NCBI GenBank assembly: GCA_910577175.1
Contig: CAJTLU010000013.1
Coordinates: forward strand, 4,171-68,170
Direction of reading: 5' to 3'
Length of the DNA stretch: 64,000 bases
Source: an uncultured Lachnospiraceae bacterium
Lineage (GTDB): Bacteria; Bacillota; Clostridia; Lachnospirales; Lachnospiraceae
How positions within the stretch are numbered: position 1 is the stretch's first letter; each line of letters begins with the position of its first letter. Below, in pieces: positions 2,766-10,730 of this stretch. The notes below the pieces were generated by a model. That model searched no databases and had not been told where the DNA came from. It worked only from the letters and a program-made list of their open reading frames with translations. A program made the position numbers and the translations under genes.

Positions 2766-2898
2766 AATCATACGTCCATACCATGTCCTTTCTTCCTTAC
2801 AGCTTTTTCTGCTTCACACTTTTTTGTGTTTTATCCAGTATATCATAAAATTGTACAGATTCCATCAAATTTCGAACAGTCTCACAACATTTTATTTC

Positions 2899-2932
2899 AT
2901 AATATTTGCTGCGATAGAGCAGCAAATATTAT
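2899..2932. promoter_or_regulatory. C-box-like operator: 14-bp perfect inverted repeat
   Basis: ataatatttgctgc-gataga-gcagcaaatattat. A third GCAGCA half-site sits at 2950-2955 inside the promoter spacer. Located just upstream of the HTH gene. Confidence 0.6.
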
Positions 2933-2939
2933 ATTTTTG

Positions 2940-2968
2940 TTGCATTTATGCAGCAGGTGTGCTATACT
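2940..2968 (+). promoter_or_regulatory. Sigma-A type promoter of the HTH-methylase operon
   Basis: -35 TTGCAT (2940-2945), 17-nt spacer, extended -10 TGcTATACT (2960-2968). Confidence 0.6.
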
Positions 2969-2989
2969 ATCCAAAATAGAGGTGATGAT

Positions 2990-3349
2990 ATGGCTAAAAC
3001 ACTTGGACAATATCTGAGGGCAATAAGGGAACAAAATAAATTAAGCACAAGAGACGTGGAAAAAGAGACCGGCATAACAACTTCACAATTAAGCCGCTTA
3101 GAATGCAGCCACACACGCAATCCGTCTCCCGTTGCTTTAAAAAAACTGGCTCTATTATATAACATAAAACTAATAGACTTGTTCCAAAAAGCAGGATATC
3201 TGGACTCCCAAGACGTAGATTCTTACATGGAATCCTGTTTCAAAGGCATTGAAAAATTAGACCAGGAAGACAAAAAACAAATACAGAATCAAATTGACTA
3301 TTTGATTTTTCAGCATGAAAAAGAAAGAGAGGACAGAAATGATTTATAG
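2990..3349 (+). CDS. XRE-family HTH regulator, probable controller (C) protein of the R-M island
   Basis: HTH_XRE signature LSTRDVEKETGITTSQLSRLE. SD agaggtga before ATG 2990. 3' end overlaps the methylase start. Confidence 0.8.
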   Translation: MAKTLGQYLRAIREQNKLSTRDVEKETGITTSQLSRLECSHTRNPSPVALKKLALLYNIKLIDLFQKAGYLDSQDVDSYMESCFKGIEKLDQEDKKQIQNQIDYLIFQHEKEREDRNDL

Positions 3350-4403
3350 ATTAGGAGAACTGTTCTGCGGCCCCGGCGGAATTGCGTGGGGAGCCCTTAA
3401 TGCCGATATCGGGGATGATAACTATAAAATTGTCCACCAATGGGCAAATGACTATGACAAAGACACCTGTGAAACATACCGGTATAACATCTGCAGCGAC
3501 AATCCAAAGAGCGTTTACCACAAAGACATCCGTGAATTTAACTTGGAAAATCTGCCAGAAATTGACGCCCTGGCTTTTGGATTCCCGTGCAATGATTACA
3601 GCGTAGTCGGAGAGCAGAAAGGCATGGACGGCGTCTTCGGCCCCCTCTATTCATATGGAGTAAAAGTATTAAATATATACAACCCTATATGGTTCGTTGC
3701 AGAAAATGTAGGCGGACTCCGAAATGCCAATGACGGAAAAGCCTTTACCAAAATCATTGACGAACTGAAAAAAGCAGGAACCCACGGCGGATATACTGTC
3801 GTCCCGCATTTATATAAATTTGAGGAATACGGAATCCCCCAGGCCCGCCACCGGATTATCATAGTAGGCATCCGGAAAGATATTGACGTTGCATACCATG
3901 TTCCTTCTCCGGAACCATATGCGGACATTGACAATACCTGCCGGAAAGCAATAGAAGACCCGCCCATCCCGACAGACGCCTTTAATAACGAACTGACAAA
4001 ACAGTCTAAAACCGTCATTGAAAGGCTGGACCATATCCTTCCCGGACAGAATGCATTTACTGCCGACCTGCCGGACGAACTGAAACTGAATGTCCACGGC
4101 GCGAAAATCAGCCAGATATACAAACGGCTGGACCCTGATAAACCTGCATACACCGTCACCGGAAGCGGCGGCGGCGGAACCCATATTTACCACTGGAAAG
4201 AATCCAGGGCCCTGACAAACCGGGAACGCGCCCGCCTGCAGACCTTCCCCGATACCTATAAATTTATCGGGAGCAAAGAAAGCGTCAGAAAACAGATCGG
4301 CATGGCCGTTCCATGCAAAGGGGCGAAAATCATATTTGAAGCCATCCTGAAAAGTTTCGCCGGCATCGAATACCCCAGCATTGAACCAAACATCAATGAA
4401 TGA
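3339..4403 (+). CDS. DNA (cytosine-5)-methyltransferase
   Basis: All C5-MTase motifs present: I ELFCGPGG, IV GFPCNDYS, VI AENVGGL, VIII QARHRIIIVG, IX RERARLQTFPD, X IGMAVP. SD agagagga before ATG 3339. Confidence 0.95.
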   Translation: MIYRLGELFCGPGGIAWGALNADIGDDNYKIVHQWANDYDKDTCETYRYNICSDNPKSVYHKDIREFNLENLPEIDALAFGFPCNDYSVVGEQKGMDGVFGPLYSYGVKVLNIYNPIWFVAENVGGLRNANDGKAFTKIIDELKKAGTHGGYTVVPHLYKFEEYGIPQARHRIIIVGIRKDIDVAYHVPSPEPYADIDNTCRKAIEDPPIPTDAFNNELTKQSKTVIERLDHILPGQNAFTADLPDELKLNVHGAKISQIYKRLDPDKPAYTVTGSGGGGTHIYHWKESRALTNRERARLQTFPDTYKFIGSKESVRKQIGMAVPCKGAKIIFEAILKSFAGIEYPSIEPNINE

Positions 4404-4410
4404 CCTTATA

Positions 4411-4440
4411 GTAAAACCGGAGCTTTAGCCCCGGTTTTAC
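4411..4440. terminator. Bidirectional hairpin terminator between convergent M and R operons
   Basis: 10-bp perfect stem gtaaaaccgg/ccggttttac with a 10-nt loop. Confidence 0.6.
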
Positions 4441-5396
4441 TACACAGAAAAATCCATATAATACTGCTCATCATCCAGCTTATAAAACGTAACATCTGTA
4501 CGTCCATATTCCTCCAGATCACTTCTCCAAATATAAGCGCCATTTGCCAGCCCCAGCCGGTTCCTGAAATACTCCCCAAGCTGTGCATTACTAAGCGGTG
4601 TAGTAATTGCCTTATTCCCCTGCTGTTCCACCCTCAATATCAGCTGATGGCCGTCATCCGTAACAACCGTAAAATGCTGTTTATTCAACGGGAAAAAGCC
4701 CGTCCGAACCATCGGCGCAGGAAGCGGTATGTACGCCTCATTCTTATTCCGCCTGCTTCTCTGCCCCCAGTTCAGCCCCGATTTCGTCCCCACTTCCCCG
4801 TTTTCCGAAAGCAGAGAAAGCGTAATTTTTTCTATATTTTCACCTGACAGACTGCCGACCGGCTTATTTTCCATATCCAAAACACTGTGCGTGGGATACA
4901 GCACCACATATTCCTCAACTTCGGCATGATTACAGAATATCGTATCATTCTCTACACTGCAGTAATACCGGTACGCTTCCAGGGCATCACACTCCACCAT
5001 ATATTCCCTGCGCTTTTCCCCAAATGCACTCTGCGTAAAATTTGCCGAACCTGCAAATGCTGCAACCGGCTCATCCCCTTTAAGCCAGACATACACTTTC
5101 GCATGTACCGGCGCAGAATCATACACATAACTGCACTGATAATGCGCCACCTCCTGGGGCATCTTCTCCTTCTGCAGCTCCTTAAATCCCTCATGGACAG
5201 CAATGCTGAGGCCGTCAAAAGGAACCATTCCCACAATCAAAGATATGTCTATAGGCCCGGATTTAAACTCCTTCAAATTCTTGATCAGCCACGAAGCCAT
5301 GTTCGGCGTTGCGTACCCTGATAAAATACACAGCCTGTCCGCCCCCGTGCGGAGCGGTTCAAACAATACCCTTCTCGCCAGTTCTGAATACTTCAT
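4440..5396 (-). CDS. PLD-family restriction endonuclease with C-terminal B3-like DNA-binding domain (NgoFVII/CglI R-protein type), copy 1
   Basis: Single HKD motif HAKVYVW...GSANFT. C-terminal FTVVTDDG...GNKAI...LGEYFRNRLGL...EEYGRTDVTF. Confidence 0.8.
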   Translation of the reverse strand: MKYSELARRVLFEPLRTGADRLCILSGYATPNMASWLIKNLKEFKSGPIDISLIVGMVPFDGLSIAVHEGFKELQKEKMPQEVAHYQCSYVYDSAPVHAKVYVWLKGDEPVAAFAGSANFTQSAFGEKRREYMVECDALEAYRYYCSVENDTIFCNHAEVEEYVVLYPTHSVLDMENKPVGSLSGENIEKITLSLLSENGEVGTKSGLNWGQRSRRNKNEAYIPLPAPMVRTGFFPLNKQHFTVVTDDGHQLILRVEQQGNKAITTPLSNAQLGEYFRNRLGLANGAYIWRSDLEEYGRTDVTFYKLDDEQYYMDFSV

Positions 5397-5425
5397 GGCA
5401 CCTTCCTTTCAAACACATAATACCA

Positions 5426-7279
5426 TTATTCACTGTCATCTGTTATATCATAATACACCATCTTATCCGGCAGTTTGATATTCGGAACCCAGATTTTCTC
5501 TCCGCCCCAGCCTTTTTCTCCTGTCATCTGATACATCGTAAGAACAATCTTGTCCGTGACAGATGCGCCTAACTGCCAGTCATTAGGAGACAGCAGCGCA
5601 CCCGTACCCTTCGCCACGTTCCTGTTCCTCCTGACAATCAGAACCCCCTGGCCTGCCGGTTTTTCAGCAAGCACCATATCAATAATAGAACGGAAAACAC
5701 TTACCTTAAAATCATCCTCCGACTTGATATGGGAAAAAACCTCCTGCATCAGACGAAGGCTCACCTGATAACACGGCTGTGAATCATCAAATGCCTCCAG
5801 AAGCCGGTCAATGTCAGCAATCGTATCGTTCTCCGGCGAATATGGATAATAATTTGTCCCCCCTGAAATCATGGCCAGCTTCTTATTATCCAGAACATTC
5901 TTCCTTGTCGGATTCAATCCCTCCGGATAATAAATCTTCACATCCGCAGTTCCCCTCTCCACCTGGGAAATAATAGAATTATTCGTTGCATTGATATCCG
6001 CAAACAGCTTATACAAATGCTCGTCAATAAACACCTTCATAAGCCCGGCATCCCTGTCATAGCCGAACATGCGGCTGTGCTGCCACATCGTATCTGCCTG
6101 CGGCTTCTTAGCCGTCCTGGTATAATAAATCGTCTGCAGCCCCGCAAAAGTAACACCCCGTCCAAGCGTATTCCCGCCGATAATCACATTAGAGCCCGAT
6201 GCATAATCATCACTGCCTACATCGGAACTTCCGTTCATGACCAGAACCTTAATTTCATCATTTTCCAGCAGTTTCTGTATAAAACCCAAAACCTCTCCAA
6301 ACGGCTTCTTCTCAAATTTAACCGGGTTCAGCTGCTCATACCACTGCCTGGCCTGCACAGTAAATCCGTCATCCCTGCACCTTTCCTTGAAATCCCCCAA
6401 AACCTTAAACACATCCTGCTGGTATTTTCCATGCACCGCCTTCCGAACACTGGGATGAATTAAAAAATTTGCCACCCCTTTTCCCGCTGTCAGCATGATA
6501 CCCGATACCACCAGATGATGCATTAACGCCTCTTCCAACGGATCTCTTAAAGAATCTATATAAGAAATACACTCCCCGGCTCCTTCCGCCGGAAAGAAAA
6601 AGTCTCCCCCAAGATACCCGTTTCCCGGCCGGAAATAATAAGCAAAATATGGGTGCCACCCTGATGACATTGTCTGCAGCAACAGCGCCTGCGGCGTCCC
6701 CGTAACCTGCAGATAAATACTGCACGCCGATCTCGCCTTAATATCATCCAGATACCTGTTGATAGAAGACCTGCTGTTTCTGTTGACCATCGTATTCAGA
6801 GAAGCCGCATCTGCCTCATCATCAATAATGAACAGTGGGTTCCCCCTCATAAACCCCGTAGAACCCAGAATATTAGACCACTGCTTCAAAGTCCTTACAT
6901 TCTTCTTTAACACAATAATGGCCGGCTGCATCAGACAGTTCTCTGCAAAAATCTCCGAATCATATTCGTCACATATACAGAATCCTTCCAAGTCCTCCCT
7001 CACCCGCTCAATGGTCTGCTGCTGCAGTATGACATTATCTGTTGTCAAAATCAAAAATACCGGAAAACCCAAATCCGCCGCCACAGAAATCACGCCGAAC
7101 ATCTGCCCTGTTTTTCCGGACTGCACATTTCCAAAGAGAAGCCCCACCTCATGCTCACAAAAAGAAAACCCTTCTAAATATTTCGGCGCGATATTATCCA
7201 CCGTTTCCTGGATAGAATCAGCTAACTGCTTATTCCCCCGCCCCTCTATCTTCTTCAAGTACGTTTCAAGATATTTCAT
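5426..7279 (-). CDS. Z1-domain P-loop ATPase (N-protein type of CglI/NgoAVII restriction enzymes)
   Basis: Walker A GNVQSGKTG, Walker B/DEAD-like FIIDDEADAAS, about 617 aa. Start set at ATG 7279 with SD ggaggcaga. Overlaps the upstream gene by 14 nt. Confidence 0.8.
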   Translation of the reverse strand: MKYLETYLKKIEGRGNKQLADSIQETVDNIAPKYLEGFSFCEHEVGLLFGNVQSGKTGQMFGVISVAADLGFPVFLILTTDNVILQQQTIERVREDLEGFCICDEYDSEIFAENCLMQPAIIVLKKNVRTLKQWSNILGSTGFMRGNPLFIIDDEADAASLNTMVNRNSRSSINRYLDDIKARSACSIYLQVTGTPQALLLQTMSSGWHPYFAYYFRPGNGYLGGDFFFPAEGAGECISYIDSLRDPLEEALMHHLVVSGIMLTAGKGVANFLIHPSVRKAVHGKYQQDVFKVLGDFKERCRDDGFTVQARQWYEQLNPVKFEKKPFGEVLGFIQKLLENDEIKVLVMNGSSDVGSDDYASGSNVIIGGNTLGRGVTFAGLQTIYYTRTAKKPQADTMWQHSRMFGYDRDAGLMKVFIDEHLYKLFADINATNNSIISQVERGTADVKIYYPEGLNPTRKNVLDNKKLAMISGGTNYYPYSPENDTIADIDRLLEAFDDSQPCYQVSLRLMQEVFSHIKSEDDFKVSVFRSIIDMVLAEKPAGQGVLIVRRNRNVAKGTGALLSPNDWQLGASVTDKIVLTMYQMTGEKGWGGEKIWVPNIKLPDKMVYYDITDDSE

Positions 7280-8414
7280 CTTCTGCCTCCTGCTGATGCC
7301 TGCTCTCCGGAAGGAAAGATAGCATCCATACTTCCAGCTCCGTACCATCCTCCGTCTTCGTCACAATATCTGTCTTTGTCAGCGTAATCGTATCCCGCCC
7401 GTATTTATTCAGCATCTTATGTGTAATAACACCTTTCCCACCCAGGTCACTTTCCACCCGATTCACCGGCTCCACCAGGCCGGCCGCTACAAGACGCCCC
7501 TTGATCCAGCGCCCCATAATCTTCAAATCGTCTTTTGAATACAAATTTTTGTTATTCTGCCCGCATGTCCAGGCCTGGAACTTCCAGCCGTCATCCGTAA
7601 CCGCCATAAAGGGTTGCTGATGCAGGGGATAGCCCGGCAGGTCCCTGATAGACTTACTAACCACCATTTCAATCTCCCACCAGACACGCTTTCTTCCGCT
7701 CGCATAGCAGACATTGATATTGGAACCCCTCATAGACTGATCATTCTCATCCTCCGGCACTTTCAACGGAAGCTCAAAGGAAACCTCCGTCATCCTCTTC
7801 TTATAAGCGTCCACCTCCTCCGGCGTAACCTTGGAAACAAATTCCTGATCCACCAGCGCCCGGTTGACCTCCCGAATCAATGGCACATCCCGCAGGTCAG
7901 CAATATTAGCCGAACACTTCGGAAGCATAATATCCCTGACATGGGCAGAAATCTCCTGCAGTTCCCCCGGTTCCTCCGTCACTGCTGACAATTCATACTG
8001 GCGCAGATTGGATGCCTCCAGCTTGACTGCTCCCAGATTATGCGAACCAACCACAGCAGAAAACGGCTTTCCATTCTTATAAAAAGCATACACTTTCCCA
8101 TGATATTTAAACGCCCTCACCAGACGCACTTCACCAATCCCGCGCCCGGTCCAGTCCTCATTCAAAGCCGCCGCTACATTATATGTACCCTCCGGCATAC
8201 CCTCATGATAATACATACCGATTGTCAGACAGACCCTCTTTATTCCAGCCTCGTCAACCAGCCCCTGCAGCTCTTTTAATGCCGCCTTCGACACATACCC
8301 CACTGCAATATCTATTTCATCCGCCTCACGCACAGCATCCATAAAATAATCTATAAAAGCTGTCTGCCCGTCTCCCAGCTTTAACGGGAGCATATTAGAA
8401 TATAATAACCGCAT
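7266..8414 (-). CDS. Second, divergent PLD-family nuclease with B3-like C-terminal domain, copy 2
   Basis: HKD motif YHGKVYAF...VGSHNLG. C-terminal FMAVTDDG...NNKNL...MGRWIKGRL...NKYGRDTITL is paralogous to the 4440-5396 product. Start set at ATG 8414 (SD ggagaaggg). Confidence 0.75.
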   Translation of the reverse strand: MRLLYSNMLPLKLGDGQTAFIDYFMDAVREADEIDIAVGYVSKAALKELQGLVDEAGIKRVCLTIGMYYHEGMPEGTYNVAAALNEDWTGRGIGEVRLVRAFKYHGKVYAFYKNGKPFSAVVGSHNLGAVKLEASNLRQYELSAVTEEPGELQEISAHVRDIMLPKCSANIADLRDVPLIREVNRALVDQEFVSKVTPEEVDAYKKRMTEVSFELPLKVPEDENDQSMRGSNINVCYASGRKRVWWEIEMVVSKSIRDLPGYPLHQQPFMAVTDDGWKFQAWTCGQNNKNLYSKDDLKIMGRWIKGRLVAAGLVEPVNRVESDLGGKGVITHKMLNKYGRDTITLTKTDIVTKTEDGTELEVWMLSFLPESRHQQEAEDEIS

Positions 8415-8477
8415 TTTCCCTTCTCCATTTTCATTAGTCACTGCAATTATAGCAGACATACCCGGCACTTTCTACCA

Positions 8478-8957
8478 TCACTCATCATCCACCCCATAAA
8501 ACGTCCTGTCTCCCTGCACGTTCAACTCAAAAATGCATTCTTCAATCACCCGGATACACTCCCCGCAGTTCTTTAAAATATCCTTTCCCCAAAACCGGAT
8601 CACTGTCCAGCCCATGAACATGAGAGCCTTATTCACCTCATCATCCCGCTCCATATTCCTCAATATCTTTTTCTTCCAATACTCCGGATTGTTTCCCGCC
8701 TCCAGACGCGGCTTCAAAACCTCCCAGTCCTTCCCATGAAAAAATTCACTATCACAAAAAATCGCTATCTTATACTTTGTCAGCGCAATATCCGGCTTAC
8801 CCGGCAGGGCGGCATAATTCTTCCTATACCGAAATCCCCTTGCCCACAGCTCTTTCCGCAGCATCACCTCAATGCTGGTATCACTGGACCTGATATTCCG
8901 CATATTCTTATGCCGCTGTTCCTTCGTAAGATTGTCCACTTCATCAGCCCCAAACAC
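8478..8957 (-). CDS. vsr: Very short patch repair endonuclease
   Basis: Classic Vsr block RSSDTSIEVMLRKELWARGFRYRKN...LPGKPDIAL...IAIFCDSEFFHG. Exact start uncertain (GTG 8957 or GTG 8939). Confidence 0.9.
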   Translation of the reverse strand: MFGADEVDNLTKEQRHKNMRNIRSSDTSIEVMLRKELWARGFRYRKNYAALPGKPDIALTKYKIAIFCDSEFFHGKDWEVLKPRLEAGNNPEYWKKKILRNMERDDEVNKALMFMGWTVIRFWGKDILKNCGECIRVIEECIFELNVQGDRTFYGVDDE

Positions 8958-8988
8958 AACATAAACAACTTTTAACTATTTCCATCAC

Positions 8989-9381
8989 CTATCCAAGATA
9001 CTCGATTTCAAGGCTGTTAGGAGAAGTAAAAGTCACCCTGACTTCCCCGCCTACTTGTGCGCCAACGCTTCTGTACCAATTACCTATGCCCTTTAGATTT
9101 CCTTCCTCCGCAAACTGCTTTGCATAAACATCCCCTGCACTGCTGCACCCCTGCGCAAGCAAAATACCAGAATAACGTCCATTTACAGCAACACAGCGGT
9201 ACCTGGGATTTGTTGTAGGATGATTGTCATTAAATATACCAAACCTCTCTGCATACTGCCGCGGTATCTTAATATAACCTTCCCCATAAATTGGATCACG
9301 GGTATTAGTATAGCGGTATGTACCCCACCCTAAATGGGACGGCTTCAAAGTAACTGTAAATGTGTCTCCTGCTCTTGGCAT
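8989..9381 (-). CDS. 130-aa stand-alone protein resembling the B3-like DNA-binding domain of the two PLD nucleases
   Basis: SD aagggggg. Blocks LGWGTYR...GEGYIKIPRQYAERFGIF...RVTF parallel GLNWGQR...EAYIPLP...GFFP...DVTF of the R-protein C-terminus. Eye alignment only. Confidence 0.45.
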   Translation of the reverse strand: MPRAGDTFTVTLKPSHLGWGTYRYTNTRDPIYGEGYIKIPRQYAERFGIFNDNHPTTNPRYRCVAVNGRYSGILLAQGCSSAGDVYAKQFAEEGNLKGIGNWYRSVGAQVGGEVRVTFTSPNSLEIEYLG

Positions 9382-9583
9382 AAAAATTCCCCCCTTGTAC
9401 TTTCAAAGTTTAATTTTTTCAACAGACCGTTTTCTTCTATAAATATTATCGGCTCGAAATCATGTTTTAAAAATCACATAATTATAAAAGTTCATGTCTT
9501 TTTACAGTTCTTCCCTTTTATTATACCACAAAAAGAAAATAATTGCTTCATCTTGCTAAAATTCTAAATGGTCCCTAAGTATT

Positions 9584-9708: not shown

Positions 9709-9996
9709 TCAAGGCTTCCGGTCCGGAAAGAGCGTGACGTCAAGCATTTTGTTTTCCTGTGCGGCGTCTTTTAAGACCGTAAGGAAGCGCTCGCCGTAGC
9801 TTCCAGTGCAGGAAAGCAGATGCTCTGTGTAGGTAACGGTCAGGAAAAGCGGATGTGTAATTTCACACAGGCAGTCATGCAGGGCATCCAGGTTTTTCCC
9901 ATAGTGGGCAGGAAGCTCCAGCTTGTTCGCAAGATAATCGTGTAAGGCTTCTTTGGAAGTCATTTTGTTTCCGCTGAGTGTGACGCGCTGCTGCAT
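9709..9996 (-). CDS. Barstar-family ribonuclease inhibitor
   Basis: LELPAHYGKNLDALHDCL matches the barstar core (LALPEYYGENLDALWDCL). SD aaggaga. Directly downstream of the RNase gene. Confidence 0.9.
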   Translation of the reverse strand: MQQRVTLSGNKMTSKEALHDYLANKLELPAHYGKNLDALHDCLCEITHPLFLTVTYTEHLLSCTGSYGERFLTVLKDAAQENKMLDVTLFPDRKP

Positions 9997-10037
9997 GGGA
10001 TTCTCCTTCTGGCGTTTGCCCCCTGTTTCGGGGCTAC

Positions 10038-10730
10038 CTAATATAGTTTCGTAAAGGTCTTATAATGGTCGTCTGTGTAGTAAATCAGGCCGTCGTTGGA
10101 GTAGAGAATCCGTTCTGCACCGCGGTAGCCGCCACTATAGTTTACATCGCATTCATACCAGATGCGGCCCTTAGCCTCTGGCAGAAGTCCTTCGTAGTTG
10201 CCGAACCGGTTGCCGCCGATGGACATTTTGTCCGTAACGTCCCAAAGGTTTCCTTTTTCACTGTCCCAGCCAAGCTGTTCTGCCTCATTTTTGGTAATGT
10301 AATTGGAAGGCAGCTTATGGAAGTTATGGAGATAAGCTGCGACCAGCTCCGGGGAACTGTAAGTGCCGTCTTCCTTTACCAGCTCTTCTGGTGACTTTGA
10401 GGGTTCTGGCGTTGGCGTCTCTGTCGGCGCCGCCGTTACTGTAGAAGCGGGTGTGGTCAGTGCCTCTGTTGGCGCCTTCGTTGCCGTGGGGGCAGGCGGG
10501 GTCAGCGTATGTGCCGGGGCTTCTGTCGGTGCCGGAGTCACGGTATCGGAAGATGGGAGCTCCGGTCCTTTGTTCTCTGGCGCTTCTTCATCCAGCCCGA
10601 CCGCGAAAAGTCCGGAAAAAACCTGTTTCAGGTCTTTCCCGTTTGCCAGTGCAAGCACGACTGCAATCAGGAGAACAAGAATAGAAGCGCCAAGTCTTTT
10701 CTGCTTCTTTGTAAAAGTTGGTTTATTCAT
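10038..10730 (-). CDS. Secreted or membrane-anchored barnase-type guanyl-specific ribonuclease
   Basis: C-terminal 110 aa are collinear with barnase (HKLPSNYITKNEAEQLGW...GGNRF...RIWYECDVNY...RILYSNDGLIYYTDDHYKTFTKLY). N-terminal TM/signal and a Pro/Thr/Ala-rich linker. Confidence 0.9.
   Translation of the reverse strand: MNKPTFTKKQKRLGASILVLLIAVVLALANGKDLKQVFSGLFAVGLDEEAPENKGPELPSSDTVTPAPTEAPAHTLTPPAPTATKAPTEALTTPASTVTAAPTETPTPEPSKSPEELVKEDGTYSSPELVAAYLHNFHKLPSNYITKNEAEQLGWDSEKGNLWDVTDKMSIGGNRFGNYEGLLPEAKGRIWYECDVNYSGGYRGAERILYSNDGLIYYTDDHYKTFTKLY

Follow-up and report, generated by a model that had tools for sequence, protein, structure and literature searches.

The 64,000-nucleotide stretch of DNA analysed here (the window; positions 4,171 to 68,170 of contig CAJTLU010000013.1, assembly GCA_910577175.1, from an uncultured Lachnospiraceae bacterium) contains a mobile restriction-modification cassette of ~6.5 kb, at roughly 2890-9385, in which two PLD-B3 proteins, R1 and R2, flank a DEAD-Z1 helicase-like ATPase (N). 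The reading that seems to us, on balance, the right one is that R2 and N form an ATP-driven nuclease of the CglI type, and that R1 is an optional second PLD-B3 module, coming from an autonomous Type II lineage, which is transcribed together with N, downstream of it, and shares the same methyltransferase (M); in the window R1 would probably be active as a BfiI-like homodimer on the same sites, and its role across the family would be DNA binding. An earlier note, made from the letters of the window, had described this arrangement and suggested either that R1 and R2 form a heterodimer with an asymmetric or bipartite target or that they supply two specificities to one ATPase motor. The description is borne out below; the two suggestions fare less well once R1 is followed across related loci.

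Judged by their sequences, R2, N and M are a standard system of the CglI/NgoAVII/BceSIV type, the features of which are present in the form of a PLD-B3 R protein (R2), a separate DEAD-Z1 N/H subunit and an adjacent stand-alone C5 methyltransferase. In systems of this type, the R protein and the N/H subunit form a complex of R2H2 stoichiometry that has one active site and depends on nucleoside triphosphate (NTP) hydrolysis and one-dimensional translocation for cleavage (PMC4267653, PMC4267654, PMC5737866, PMC5861437). R2 matches the Pfam models RE_NgoFVII for the PLD domain (PF09565, 2e-33) and RE_NgoFVII_C for the B3 domain (PF20731, 5e-25), and has a full-length match (E=9e-42, residues 4-349) to the crystallised R.NgoAVII (PDB 4RCT), in which its catalytic His and Lys are aligned to H104 and K106. 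PADLOC, in which the REase_II model is paired with a Helicase_II model, assigns R2 to the former (339 bits) and N to the latter (839 bits, residues 1-612), and the Walker A (GNVQSGKTG) and Walker B (DDEAD) motifs found in the translation of N agree with the description of H.CglI (PMC5861437). The single HxK...GSxN motif of R2 (H105-G-K107, G123-S-H-N126) is under strict conservation, residues H105, K107, G123, S124, N126, R138 and E141 being invariant in 157/157 R2 sequences. As the earlier note had reported, the two genes overlap by 14 nt and the Shine-Dalgarno sequence of N is inside the 3' end of R2; the R2 stop ends at 7266, the N ATG lies at 7279, with GGAGG 6 nt before it, and R2 is translationally coupled to N. 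Among 78 complete cassettes, the pairwise identities of R2 and N are correlated with r=0.97, and the two behave as an obligate pair. By homology, an R2(2)N(2) complex with NTP-dependent cleavage would be expected in this cassette, an expectation to which the translational coupling and the co-variation lend indirect support. A separate observation on R2 is that the C-arm of its B3 domain (residues ~270-300) reads WKFQAWTCGQNNKNLYSKDD in the clade of the window and YWFKAHTTSDNNKQFSAVGDE in most other cassettes, the R1 C-arm and the target-recognition region of M being conserved.

R1 matches the same two Pfam families, RE_NgoFVII for its PLD domain (8e-51) and RE_NgoFVII_C for its B3 domain (PF20731, 3e-44), and the presence of PLD-B3 proteins on either side of a Z1 ATPase is thus supported by matches far beyond chance for all three proteins. 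Motif comparison found exactly one HxK...GSxN motif in each R protein, as previously noticed, that of R1 being H98-A-K100, G116-S-A-N119, with E131 also intact, so that in the window both R1 and R2 have the full His, Lys and Asn set of PLD (HKD) superfamily nucleases. The paralogy of their C-terminal domains is real but distant: BLASTP aligned the C-terminal 88 amino acids (aa) with 27% identity (E=2e-6), and a profile-profile comparison of the R1 and R2 B3 alignments with hhalign gave 94.5% probability. The match of R1 to 4RCT is weak (E=1e-3), as is its PADLOC REase_II score of 57 bits, and R1 belongs to a PLD-B3 branch separate from that of R2, the 'NgoFVII family' one, whose members also occur in solo M+R systems. 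Its 1,843 database homologues are typically 318 aa long and at least 60% identical; searches of plasmids and phages with tblastn returned few matches, distant or unannotated, and NCBIfam has no family for R1, R2 or p130 (a small protein encoded in the same cassette). The AlphaFold2 (AF2) model of R1, built from a 17-sequence alignment, has a pLDDT of 58.8 and finds generic PLD folds and a weak match to BfiI (2c1l) in Foldseek, which is too poor for claims about domain arrangement. Conserved cassette-specific R1 residues that could mark an interaction surface were sought, and only clade-defining substitutions were seen.

Related loci were collected in two ways. Searching GTDB species genomes with an R1 alignment, and scoring the open reading frames (ORFs) around the matches by phmmer against the window proteins, produced 62 loci, of which 45 are full cassettes (R2, N and R1 facing M and a controller gene, C); another 5 break off within N, R1 is solo in 10, and 2 are too short to classify. 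In the solo loci (8 confirmed and 2 probable, all with a canonical HKD motif), M is co-linear into R1 or R1 faces M and C, and the flanks hold no N or R2. A second search, by an R2 alignment in contigs of metagenomic and viral origin, produced 112 further loci, 89 of them classifiable as R2-N loci; R1 follows N in 43 of these and is absent from the other 46, the remaining layout being alike. R2 is present in 87/87 loci that have R1, N and enough flank. The loci without R1 are scattered over the N tree (neighbour-joining), which implies many losses of R1; apart from this, the trees of R1 and N broadly agree. In the 78 complete cassettes, the pairwise identities of R1 are correlated less tightly with those of N (0.69), R2 (0.68) and M (0.74) than R2 and N are with each other, and R1 behaves as an optional passenger, yet one that is inherited with the cassette. 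It does not behave as a co-evolving, N-dependent second R subunit, because its family occurs without N and co-varies with it at r=0.69 vs 0.97 for R2. The existence of solo M+R1 loci implies that the R1 family is also an ordinary two-gene methyltransferase+nuclease system, and the gene context of these 8-10 loci suggests that R1 could act autonomously, in the manner of BfiI.

The position of R1 directly after N is nevertheless suggestive of a motor common to both R proteins. The gap between N and R1 is 29 nt in the window, with an AGGAAGG Shine-Dalgarno sequence inside it, and has a median of 14 nt across loci, being ≤40 nt in 81/84 and replaced by an overlap in 18/84. R1(2)N(2) and R2(2)N(2) complexes might thus both form, perhaps with nested specificities under a degenerate methylase, and it would be in keeping with this that R1 in cassettes is always accompanied by N, that the R1 and R2 B3 domains are very divergent, and that the C-arm varies between clades in R2 and is invariant in R1. 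However, R1 and N without R2 are found in none of the 87 informative loci, whereas R2 and N alone are common, and no N is present within 10 kb of a solo R1, so that the family needs no motor. The co-variation of R1 with N falls well short of that of R2, and the catalytically dead R1s described next would give complexes unable to cut. Since one M also serves all architectures (see below), the idea of two specificities on one ATPase motor is weakened and we regard it as unlikely.

The fate of the R1 active site in relatives is the most telling evidence on the role of this protein. Out of 92 cassette R1s, 28 are canonical, 2 have N119 changed to Asp, 35 have the catalytic Lys changed to Asn (N119 then usually being Asp or Glu as well) and 27 have K, Q, R, S, T, Y or E in place of the His itself. 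After removal of sequences >93% identical, ~50 cassette R1s remain, 12 of which keep the Lys and 38 do not (37 Asn, 1 Ser), and 19 are without the His. This degeneration is confined to cassettes, the solo R1s all keeping H, K, GS, N and E, and the window R1 is a member of the still-canonical clade. A copy lacking catalytic residues, which the earlier note had named as the finding that would speak against its proposal, is therefore what most relatives have and what the window does not. The degenerate R1s are not pseudogenes, since their ORFs are full length, their dN/dS is low and their B3 domain is conserved. Purifying selection is indeed evident in every group, with NG86 dN/dS values (computed at dS ~0.8-1.5) for PLD and B3, respectively, of 0.058 and 0.048 in the canonical clade that includes the window, 0.076 and 0.060 in the Lys-less clade, and 0.187 and 0.015 in the His-less clade; between groups, identity is 65-72% in B3 and goes down to 33-52% in PLD. 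In PLD chemistry, each active site requires two His-Lys-Asn sets, as in Nuc, BfiI and Tdp1. A mixed R1/R2 site in the His-less lineages would hold a single His, hence R2 homodimers must be the nuclease there, and R1 appears to be retained in these lineages for a function of its B3 domain. Across the family, what selection seems to keep is the site-specific binding of DNA by R1 alongside R2.N, not cutting. Together with the short gap between N and R1, the confinement of the degeneration to cassettes and the low dN/dS mark R1 and R2.N as linked in function and not in position alone.

The same degeneration could be taken further, R1 being mainly a non-catalytic DNA-binding helper or regulator of R2.N even in the window, either as a site-bound partner or roadblock by which cleavage by translocating R2.N is triggered or completed, or as a dominant-negative brake on self-restriction. 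In addition to the restriction of the degeneration to cassettes, the conserved B3 domain and the dN/dS well below 1, this would be in accord with the fact that p130, a stand-alone B3 protein, also travels with the cassette. Moreover, CglI has a single active site per R2H2 and needs one-dimensional communication, which leaves room for a helper (PMC5737866). However, the clade of the window keeps the full HKD motif under strong constraint in the PLD domain, suggesting that catalysis matters here, and half of the related loci do without R1; a mainly accessory R1 in this cassette is an unlikely proposition.

The sole methyltransferase of the cassette, M, is adjacent in nearly all related loci, and its target-recognition region (residues 191-300) matches the catalytic core in conservation. 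Over that region, the M of solo loci is 75% identical to that of the window, the M of full cassettes 76-89% and the M of loci without R1 72%. Conservation of the target-recognition region in all three architectures indicates that the same M specificity protects from R1 or R2.N by itself as well as from the two combined, and a single M with such a region argues against a composite target, whether bipartite or asymmetric.

This bears directly on the heterodimer of the earlier note, in which the PLD domains of R1 and R2 would join in a composite site with two B3 readers, driven by N towards an asymmetric or bipartite target. The proposal has a structural rationale, as each protein has a single HKD motif and the one PLD active site of R.NgoAVII and BfiI is built from two such motifs (PMC4267654). 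R1 and R2 are also part of one coupled operon, in an arrangement kept in 87 loci, and the R1 and N trees are broadly congruent. However, the R-N pairs of CglI and NgoAVII work without any R1-like partner (PMC4267653), 46/89 related loci have no R1, and R1 is itself found alone with M in ~10 loci. A mixed site would be half dead in the 19 non-redundant R1 lineages without His and the 37 with Lys changed to Asn, R1 and R2 co-vary at r=0.68 vs 0.97 for R2 and N, and a single M with a single conserved target-recognition region is difficult to reconcile with a bipartite target. A heterodimer is thus not favoured and is, in our opinion, improbable. As for R1 being a decaying duplicate or remnant without present function, its repeated loss and the disappearance of its catalytic residues in many lineages would fit, but this reading was rejected on dN/dS (0.06-0.19, including clades already without Lys or His) and is very improbable, the ORF being full length in ~100 loci, the B3 domain 65-85% identical, and the similarity to R2 (27% identity, in B3 only) incompatible with a recent duplication.

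In the scenario that we favour, with R1 as an optional module next to a CglI-type nuclease, R2(2)N(2) would bind unmethylated sites through its B3 domains and, by analogy with characterized systems, cutting would need ATP-driven translocation. R1, from its separate lineage, would have been captured into the slot that directly follows N, as an additional and optional effector, the same methyltransferase protecting against R1 and R2.N alike. In the window, R1 would most likely act as a homodimer in the way of BfiI, as a nuclease for these same sites when unmethylated, operating in parallel to R2.N or assisting it, while in most related cassettes R1, deprived of the HKD Lys and Asn and often of the His, would have kept its B3 domain for site binding beside R2.N. 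Several points weigh against this scenario. The R1 and R2 proteins of the window clade are both canonical and the pseudo-nuclease argument is therefore not directly applicable here; the changes from Lys to Asn and from Asn to Asp might conceivably retain some activity; the B3 domains of R1 and R2 are ~27% identical, and it is the shared M that suggests a shared site; a degenerate GCNGC-type methylase could cover two nested specificities; and the solo status of R1 loci was judged from flanks of ≤10 kb.

The cassette itself (Table 1) is coding almost throughout between 2,890 and 9,385 according to the ORF list, with C and then M on the plus strand facing p130, Vsr, R2, N and R1 (in order of transcription) on the minus strand.

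Table 1. Components of the cassette, in window coordinates
Feature	Position	Strand	Basis
Operator/promoter of the C-M operon	2908..2954	+	sequence and layout conserved in related loci
C, helix-turn-helix (HTH) controller protein	2990..3349	+	Pfam HTH_19/HTH_3
M, C5 cytosine DNA methyltransferase	3315..4403	+	Pfam DNA_methylase 1.7e-67; TIGR00675 dcm
G+C-rich hairpin between convergent M and R1	4412..4438	.	read from sequence
R1, 318 aa, PLD (single HKD) + B3	4440..5396	-	Pfam; motif comparison
N/H subunit, DEAD-Z1 helicase-like ATPase, 617 aa from ATG 7279	5426..7279	-	Pfam Z1 2e-25; PADLOC
R2, 382 aa, PLD + B3 nuclease	7266..8414	-	PDB 4RCT match; PADLOC; Pfam
Vsr very-short-patch repair endonuclease	8478..8957	-	Pfam Vsr 6e-29
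p130, stand-alone B3-like DNA-binding domain protein, 130 aa	8989..9381	-	family Pfam matches, AF2 model, Foldseek

Its borders were defined by blastn against the closest relatives (82-98% identity), in which the alignment is confined to ~2,804/2,889 to 9,385/9,493 and the flanks are unrelated. Because nucleotide similarity stops at these borders, C-M-R1-N-R2-Vsr-p130 is a discrete ~6.5-kb unit found in differing contexts. In one relative, CP143549, identity is 97.9% and is likewise limited to the cassette, which in the window has ABC-transporter genes on one side and a barnase/barstar pair on the other. The latter (9709-10730, minus strand), which adjoins the cassette and lies outside the shared block, comprises the genes for a secreted ribonuclease of the barnase type (Pfam Ribonuclease; its linker is rich in Pro and Thr) and for its barstar inhibitor. 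Relatives of R2 were also found on 32 viral contigs of IMG/VR, nearly all as R2-N cassettes. Many cassettes contain Vsr, the usual companion of 5-methylcytosine methyltransferases, and its place within them varies. Where M and R1 converge, the sequence AAAACCGGAGC-ttta-GCCCCGGTTTT (4412-4438) forms a hairpin that is likely to be a bidirectional terminator, although a consensus terminator scan did not include it in its list. In the Vsr-R2 gap (8446-8474, minus strand), there is a promoter-like TAGAAA-17-TATAAT with an upstream TG (10/12 matches), and R2-N-R1 may have a promoter of their own there; the regional count of such sites is not above shuffle expectation. Some cassettes are damaged, such as one in Clostridium manihotivorum (L025:6851-9983), in which ~1.1 kb with an opposite-strand 303-aa ORF splits N, and another (L162:2478-4905) in which fragmented remnants of R2 and N lie beside a second, intact and inverted R2-N pair.

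Upstream of C, which adjoins M in nearly all loci and in the window precedes and overlaps it, are two putative operator elements, GCTGC-N6-GCAGC (2908-2923) and GTTGC-N6-GCAGC (2939-2954), the second of which overlaps a -35-like TTGCAT (2940-2945) with a -10-like TATACT (2963-2968) just downstream. The fixed 6-nt spacing looks like that of a C-box operator pair. This promoter layout, together with the Shine-Dalgarno sequence AGAGGTGA before 2990, makes ATG 2990 (MAKTLGQ...) the likely true start of C, rather than the mechanical ORF call at 2948. Exactly three GCWGC pentamers are found in 90/108 distinct upstream regions, for a baseline of 0.24 per 120 nt; GCSGC is almost never present in C/M upstream regions, and the operator layout is conserved in ~100 loci with differing flanking bases. 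The target common to R1 and R2.N is probably GCWGC, and if the half-sites of the operator are, as is probable, also the methylation target, expression of C and M may be under methylation-sensitive control. A hint in the same direction is that EfaRFI, a solo methyltransferase with an NgoFVII-family nuclease, acts on GCWGC (PMC4894674). BceSIV reportedly cuts at GCWGC. A paper citing the BceSIV work lists M.BceSIV under GCAGC. R285 of NgoAVII, which reads the central G of GCCGC (PMC4267654), is replaced by Tyr in the window R2 and by Ser in most other R2s, suggesting a target that probably departs from GCCGC at its central base pair. Counts of k-mers in the 64-kb window (observed/expected ratio, O/E, of 0.90 for GCWGC and 1.10 for GCSGC) are uninformative on the target. 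As an aside, GATC (O/E 0.16) and GGCC (O/E 0.34) are both strongly under-represented over the whole window, which suggests that restriction specific for GATC and for GGCC has long acted on the lineage.

The gene with which the minus-strand operon begins, p130, is inside the 6.5-kb block common to relatives and is seen again, in differing places, both in cassettes that have R1 and in cassettes that lack it. Its product has no Pfam match at threshold, but RE_NgoFVII_C (PF20731) is matched by 28/33 members of its family (best 2.9e-6), an hhalign comparison of this family with the R2 B3 domain gives 87% probability, and the top 26 PDB matches found by Foldseek with its AF2 model (pLDDT 86.7) are all B3 domains, including those of plant B3 factors, the N-terminal domain of LlaJI.R1 and the C-terminal domain of BfiI. 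BLASTP and single-sequence profile comparisons of p130 with R1 revealed no significant similarity; the relation emerged only from alignments of the whole family, from scanning its members against Pfam and from the model of the structure. p130 is thus predicted to be a third B3 reader in the cassette, which could be a regulator or a site reader. Further diversity is seen directly after N. In one related locus without R1 (L122:3355-5899), this slot holds a gene for a 653-aa protein in which a B3-like domain (RE_NgoFVII_C, 2e-4) is fused to an OLD/AbiEii-like AAA_21/AAA_15 ATPase, and an HNH endonuclease gene follows. In another (L135), an ORF truncated by its contig resembles p130 weakly (47 bits), and the slot appears to hold the same kind of B3+AAA ORF. 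The position after N therefore behaves as a place where B3-based effectors can replace one another, all of them keyed to one and the same methyltransferase.

A more specific version of R1's part can be sketched, although only tentatively. R1 could be a dedicated B3 reader for translocating R2.N on the same unmethylated sites, providing either the cut in the second strand or a stop/collision signal for the double-strand break; pseudo-nucleases would then have evolved repeatedly since binding is what is selected, and R1, p130 and the GCWGC operator would together amount to a multi-reader system on one mark. The question is of some general interest. Enzymes of the CglI/NgoAVII type are the least understood of the ATP-dependent restriction enzymes. 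CglI needs one-dimensional communication between complexes in order to cleave, and how the two strands are cut after translocation is still open (PMC5737866). A widespread variant with a second PLD-B3 protein, whose B3 domain is conserved and whose active site is often dead, suggests that a B3 protein bound at the site acts as a helper, which can be tested, and the cassette family offers matched 'active' and 'dead' natural versions of R1. If R1 is such a helper, it could explain how CglI-type enzymes with a single active site complete a double-strand break; if it is a second independent nuclease, this would be the ordinary case of two restriction enzymes on one methylase. In either event, one methyltransferase is common to interchangeable B3-based effectors (PLD, PLD plus motor, B3 alone, and B3-ATPase plus HNH), which bears on the diversification of defence islands and on the prediction of restriction barriers in gut Firmicutes.

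How does this cassette compare with known systems? Its closest counterparts are CglI of Corynebacterium glutamicum, NgoAVII of Neisseria gonorrhoeae and BceSIV of Bacillus cereus, to which R2, N and M are alike in domains, in the order of R then N, and in sequence. CglI sits in prophage CGP3 (PMC4267653), a situation reminiscent of the relatives of this cassette on IMG/VR viral contigs. In contrast to these three systems, M is convergent here and not upstream of R, and the cassette adds R1 after N, the C controller, Vsr and a stand-alone B3 protein. The published descriptions of CglI, NgoAVII and BceSIV that were consulted (the last through citing papers) mention no second R protein, and the searchable literature, REBASE being outside the search, yielded no CglI-type cassette with a second PLD-B3 protein, pseudo-nuclease forms or a stand-alone B3 protein. 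The core and all the components are thus of known kinds, and it is the addition of a second PLD-B3 protein that is undescribed in that literature. R1 has the same plan, one HKD motif plus B3, as the ATP-independent Type IIS enzyme BfiI (PDB 2C1L), which works without an ATPase just as the R1 family also occurs as a methyltransferase+nuclease pair without one. There is no detectable close sequence relationship between the two, and the autonomy of R1 is suggested by gene context. EfaRFI of Enterococcus faecalis OG1RF, which consists of two genes encoding a C5 methyltransferase (G-5mC-WGC) and an 'NgoFVII family' nuclease (PMC4894674), has the architecture of the solo M+R1 loci. In E. faecalis T11, one M.EfaRFI homologue lies amid several nuclease genes and Vsr, and restriction is far stronger than with EfaRFI alone, 124-fold vs 3-fold (PMC4894674). 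This locus is a precedent for several effectors on one methyltransferase, but its extra nucleases are of the AlwI family and HNH, in place of which a Z1 ATPase and a second PLD-B3 protein are found here. Finally, as in C-protein-controlled Type II systems with their C-boxes, a small HTH gene precedes and overlaps M in this cassette, with two putative palindromic operators over its own promoter; what sets these operators apart from C-boxes is that their half-sites are GCWGC pentamers.

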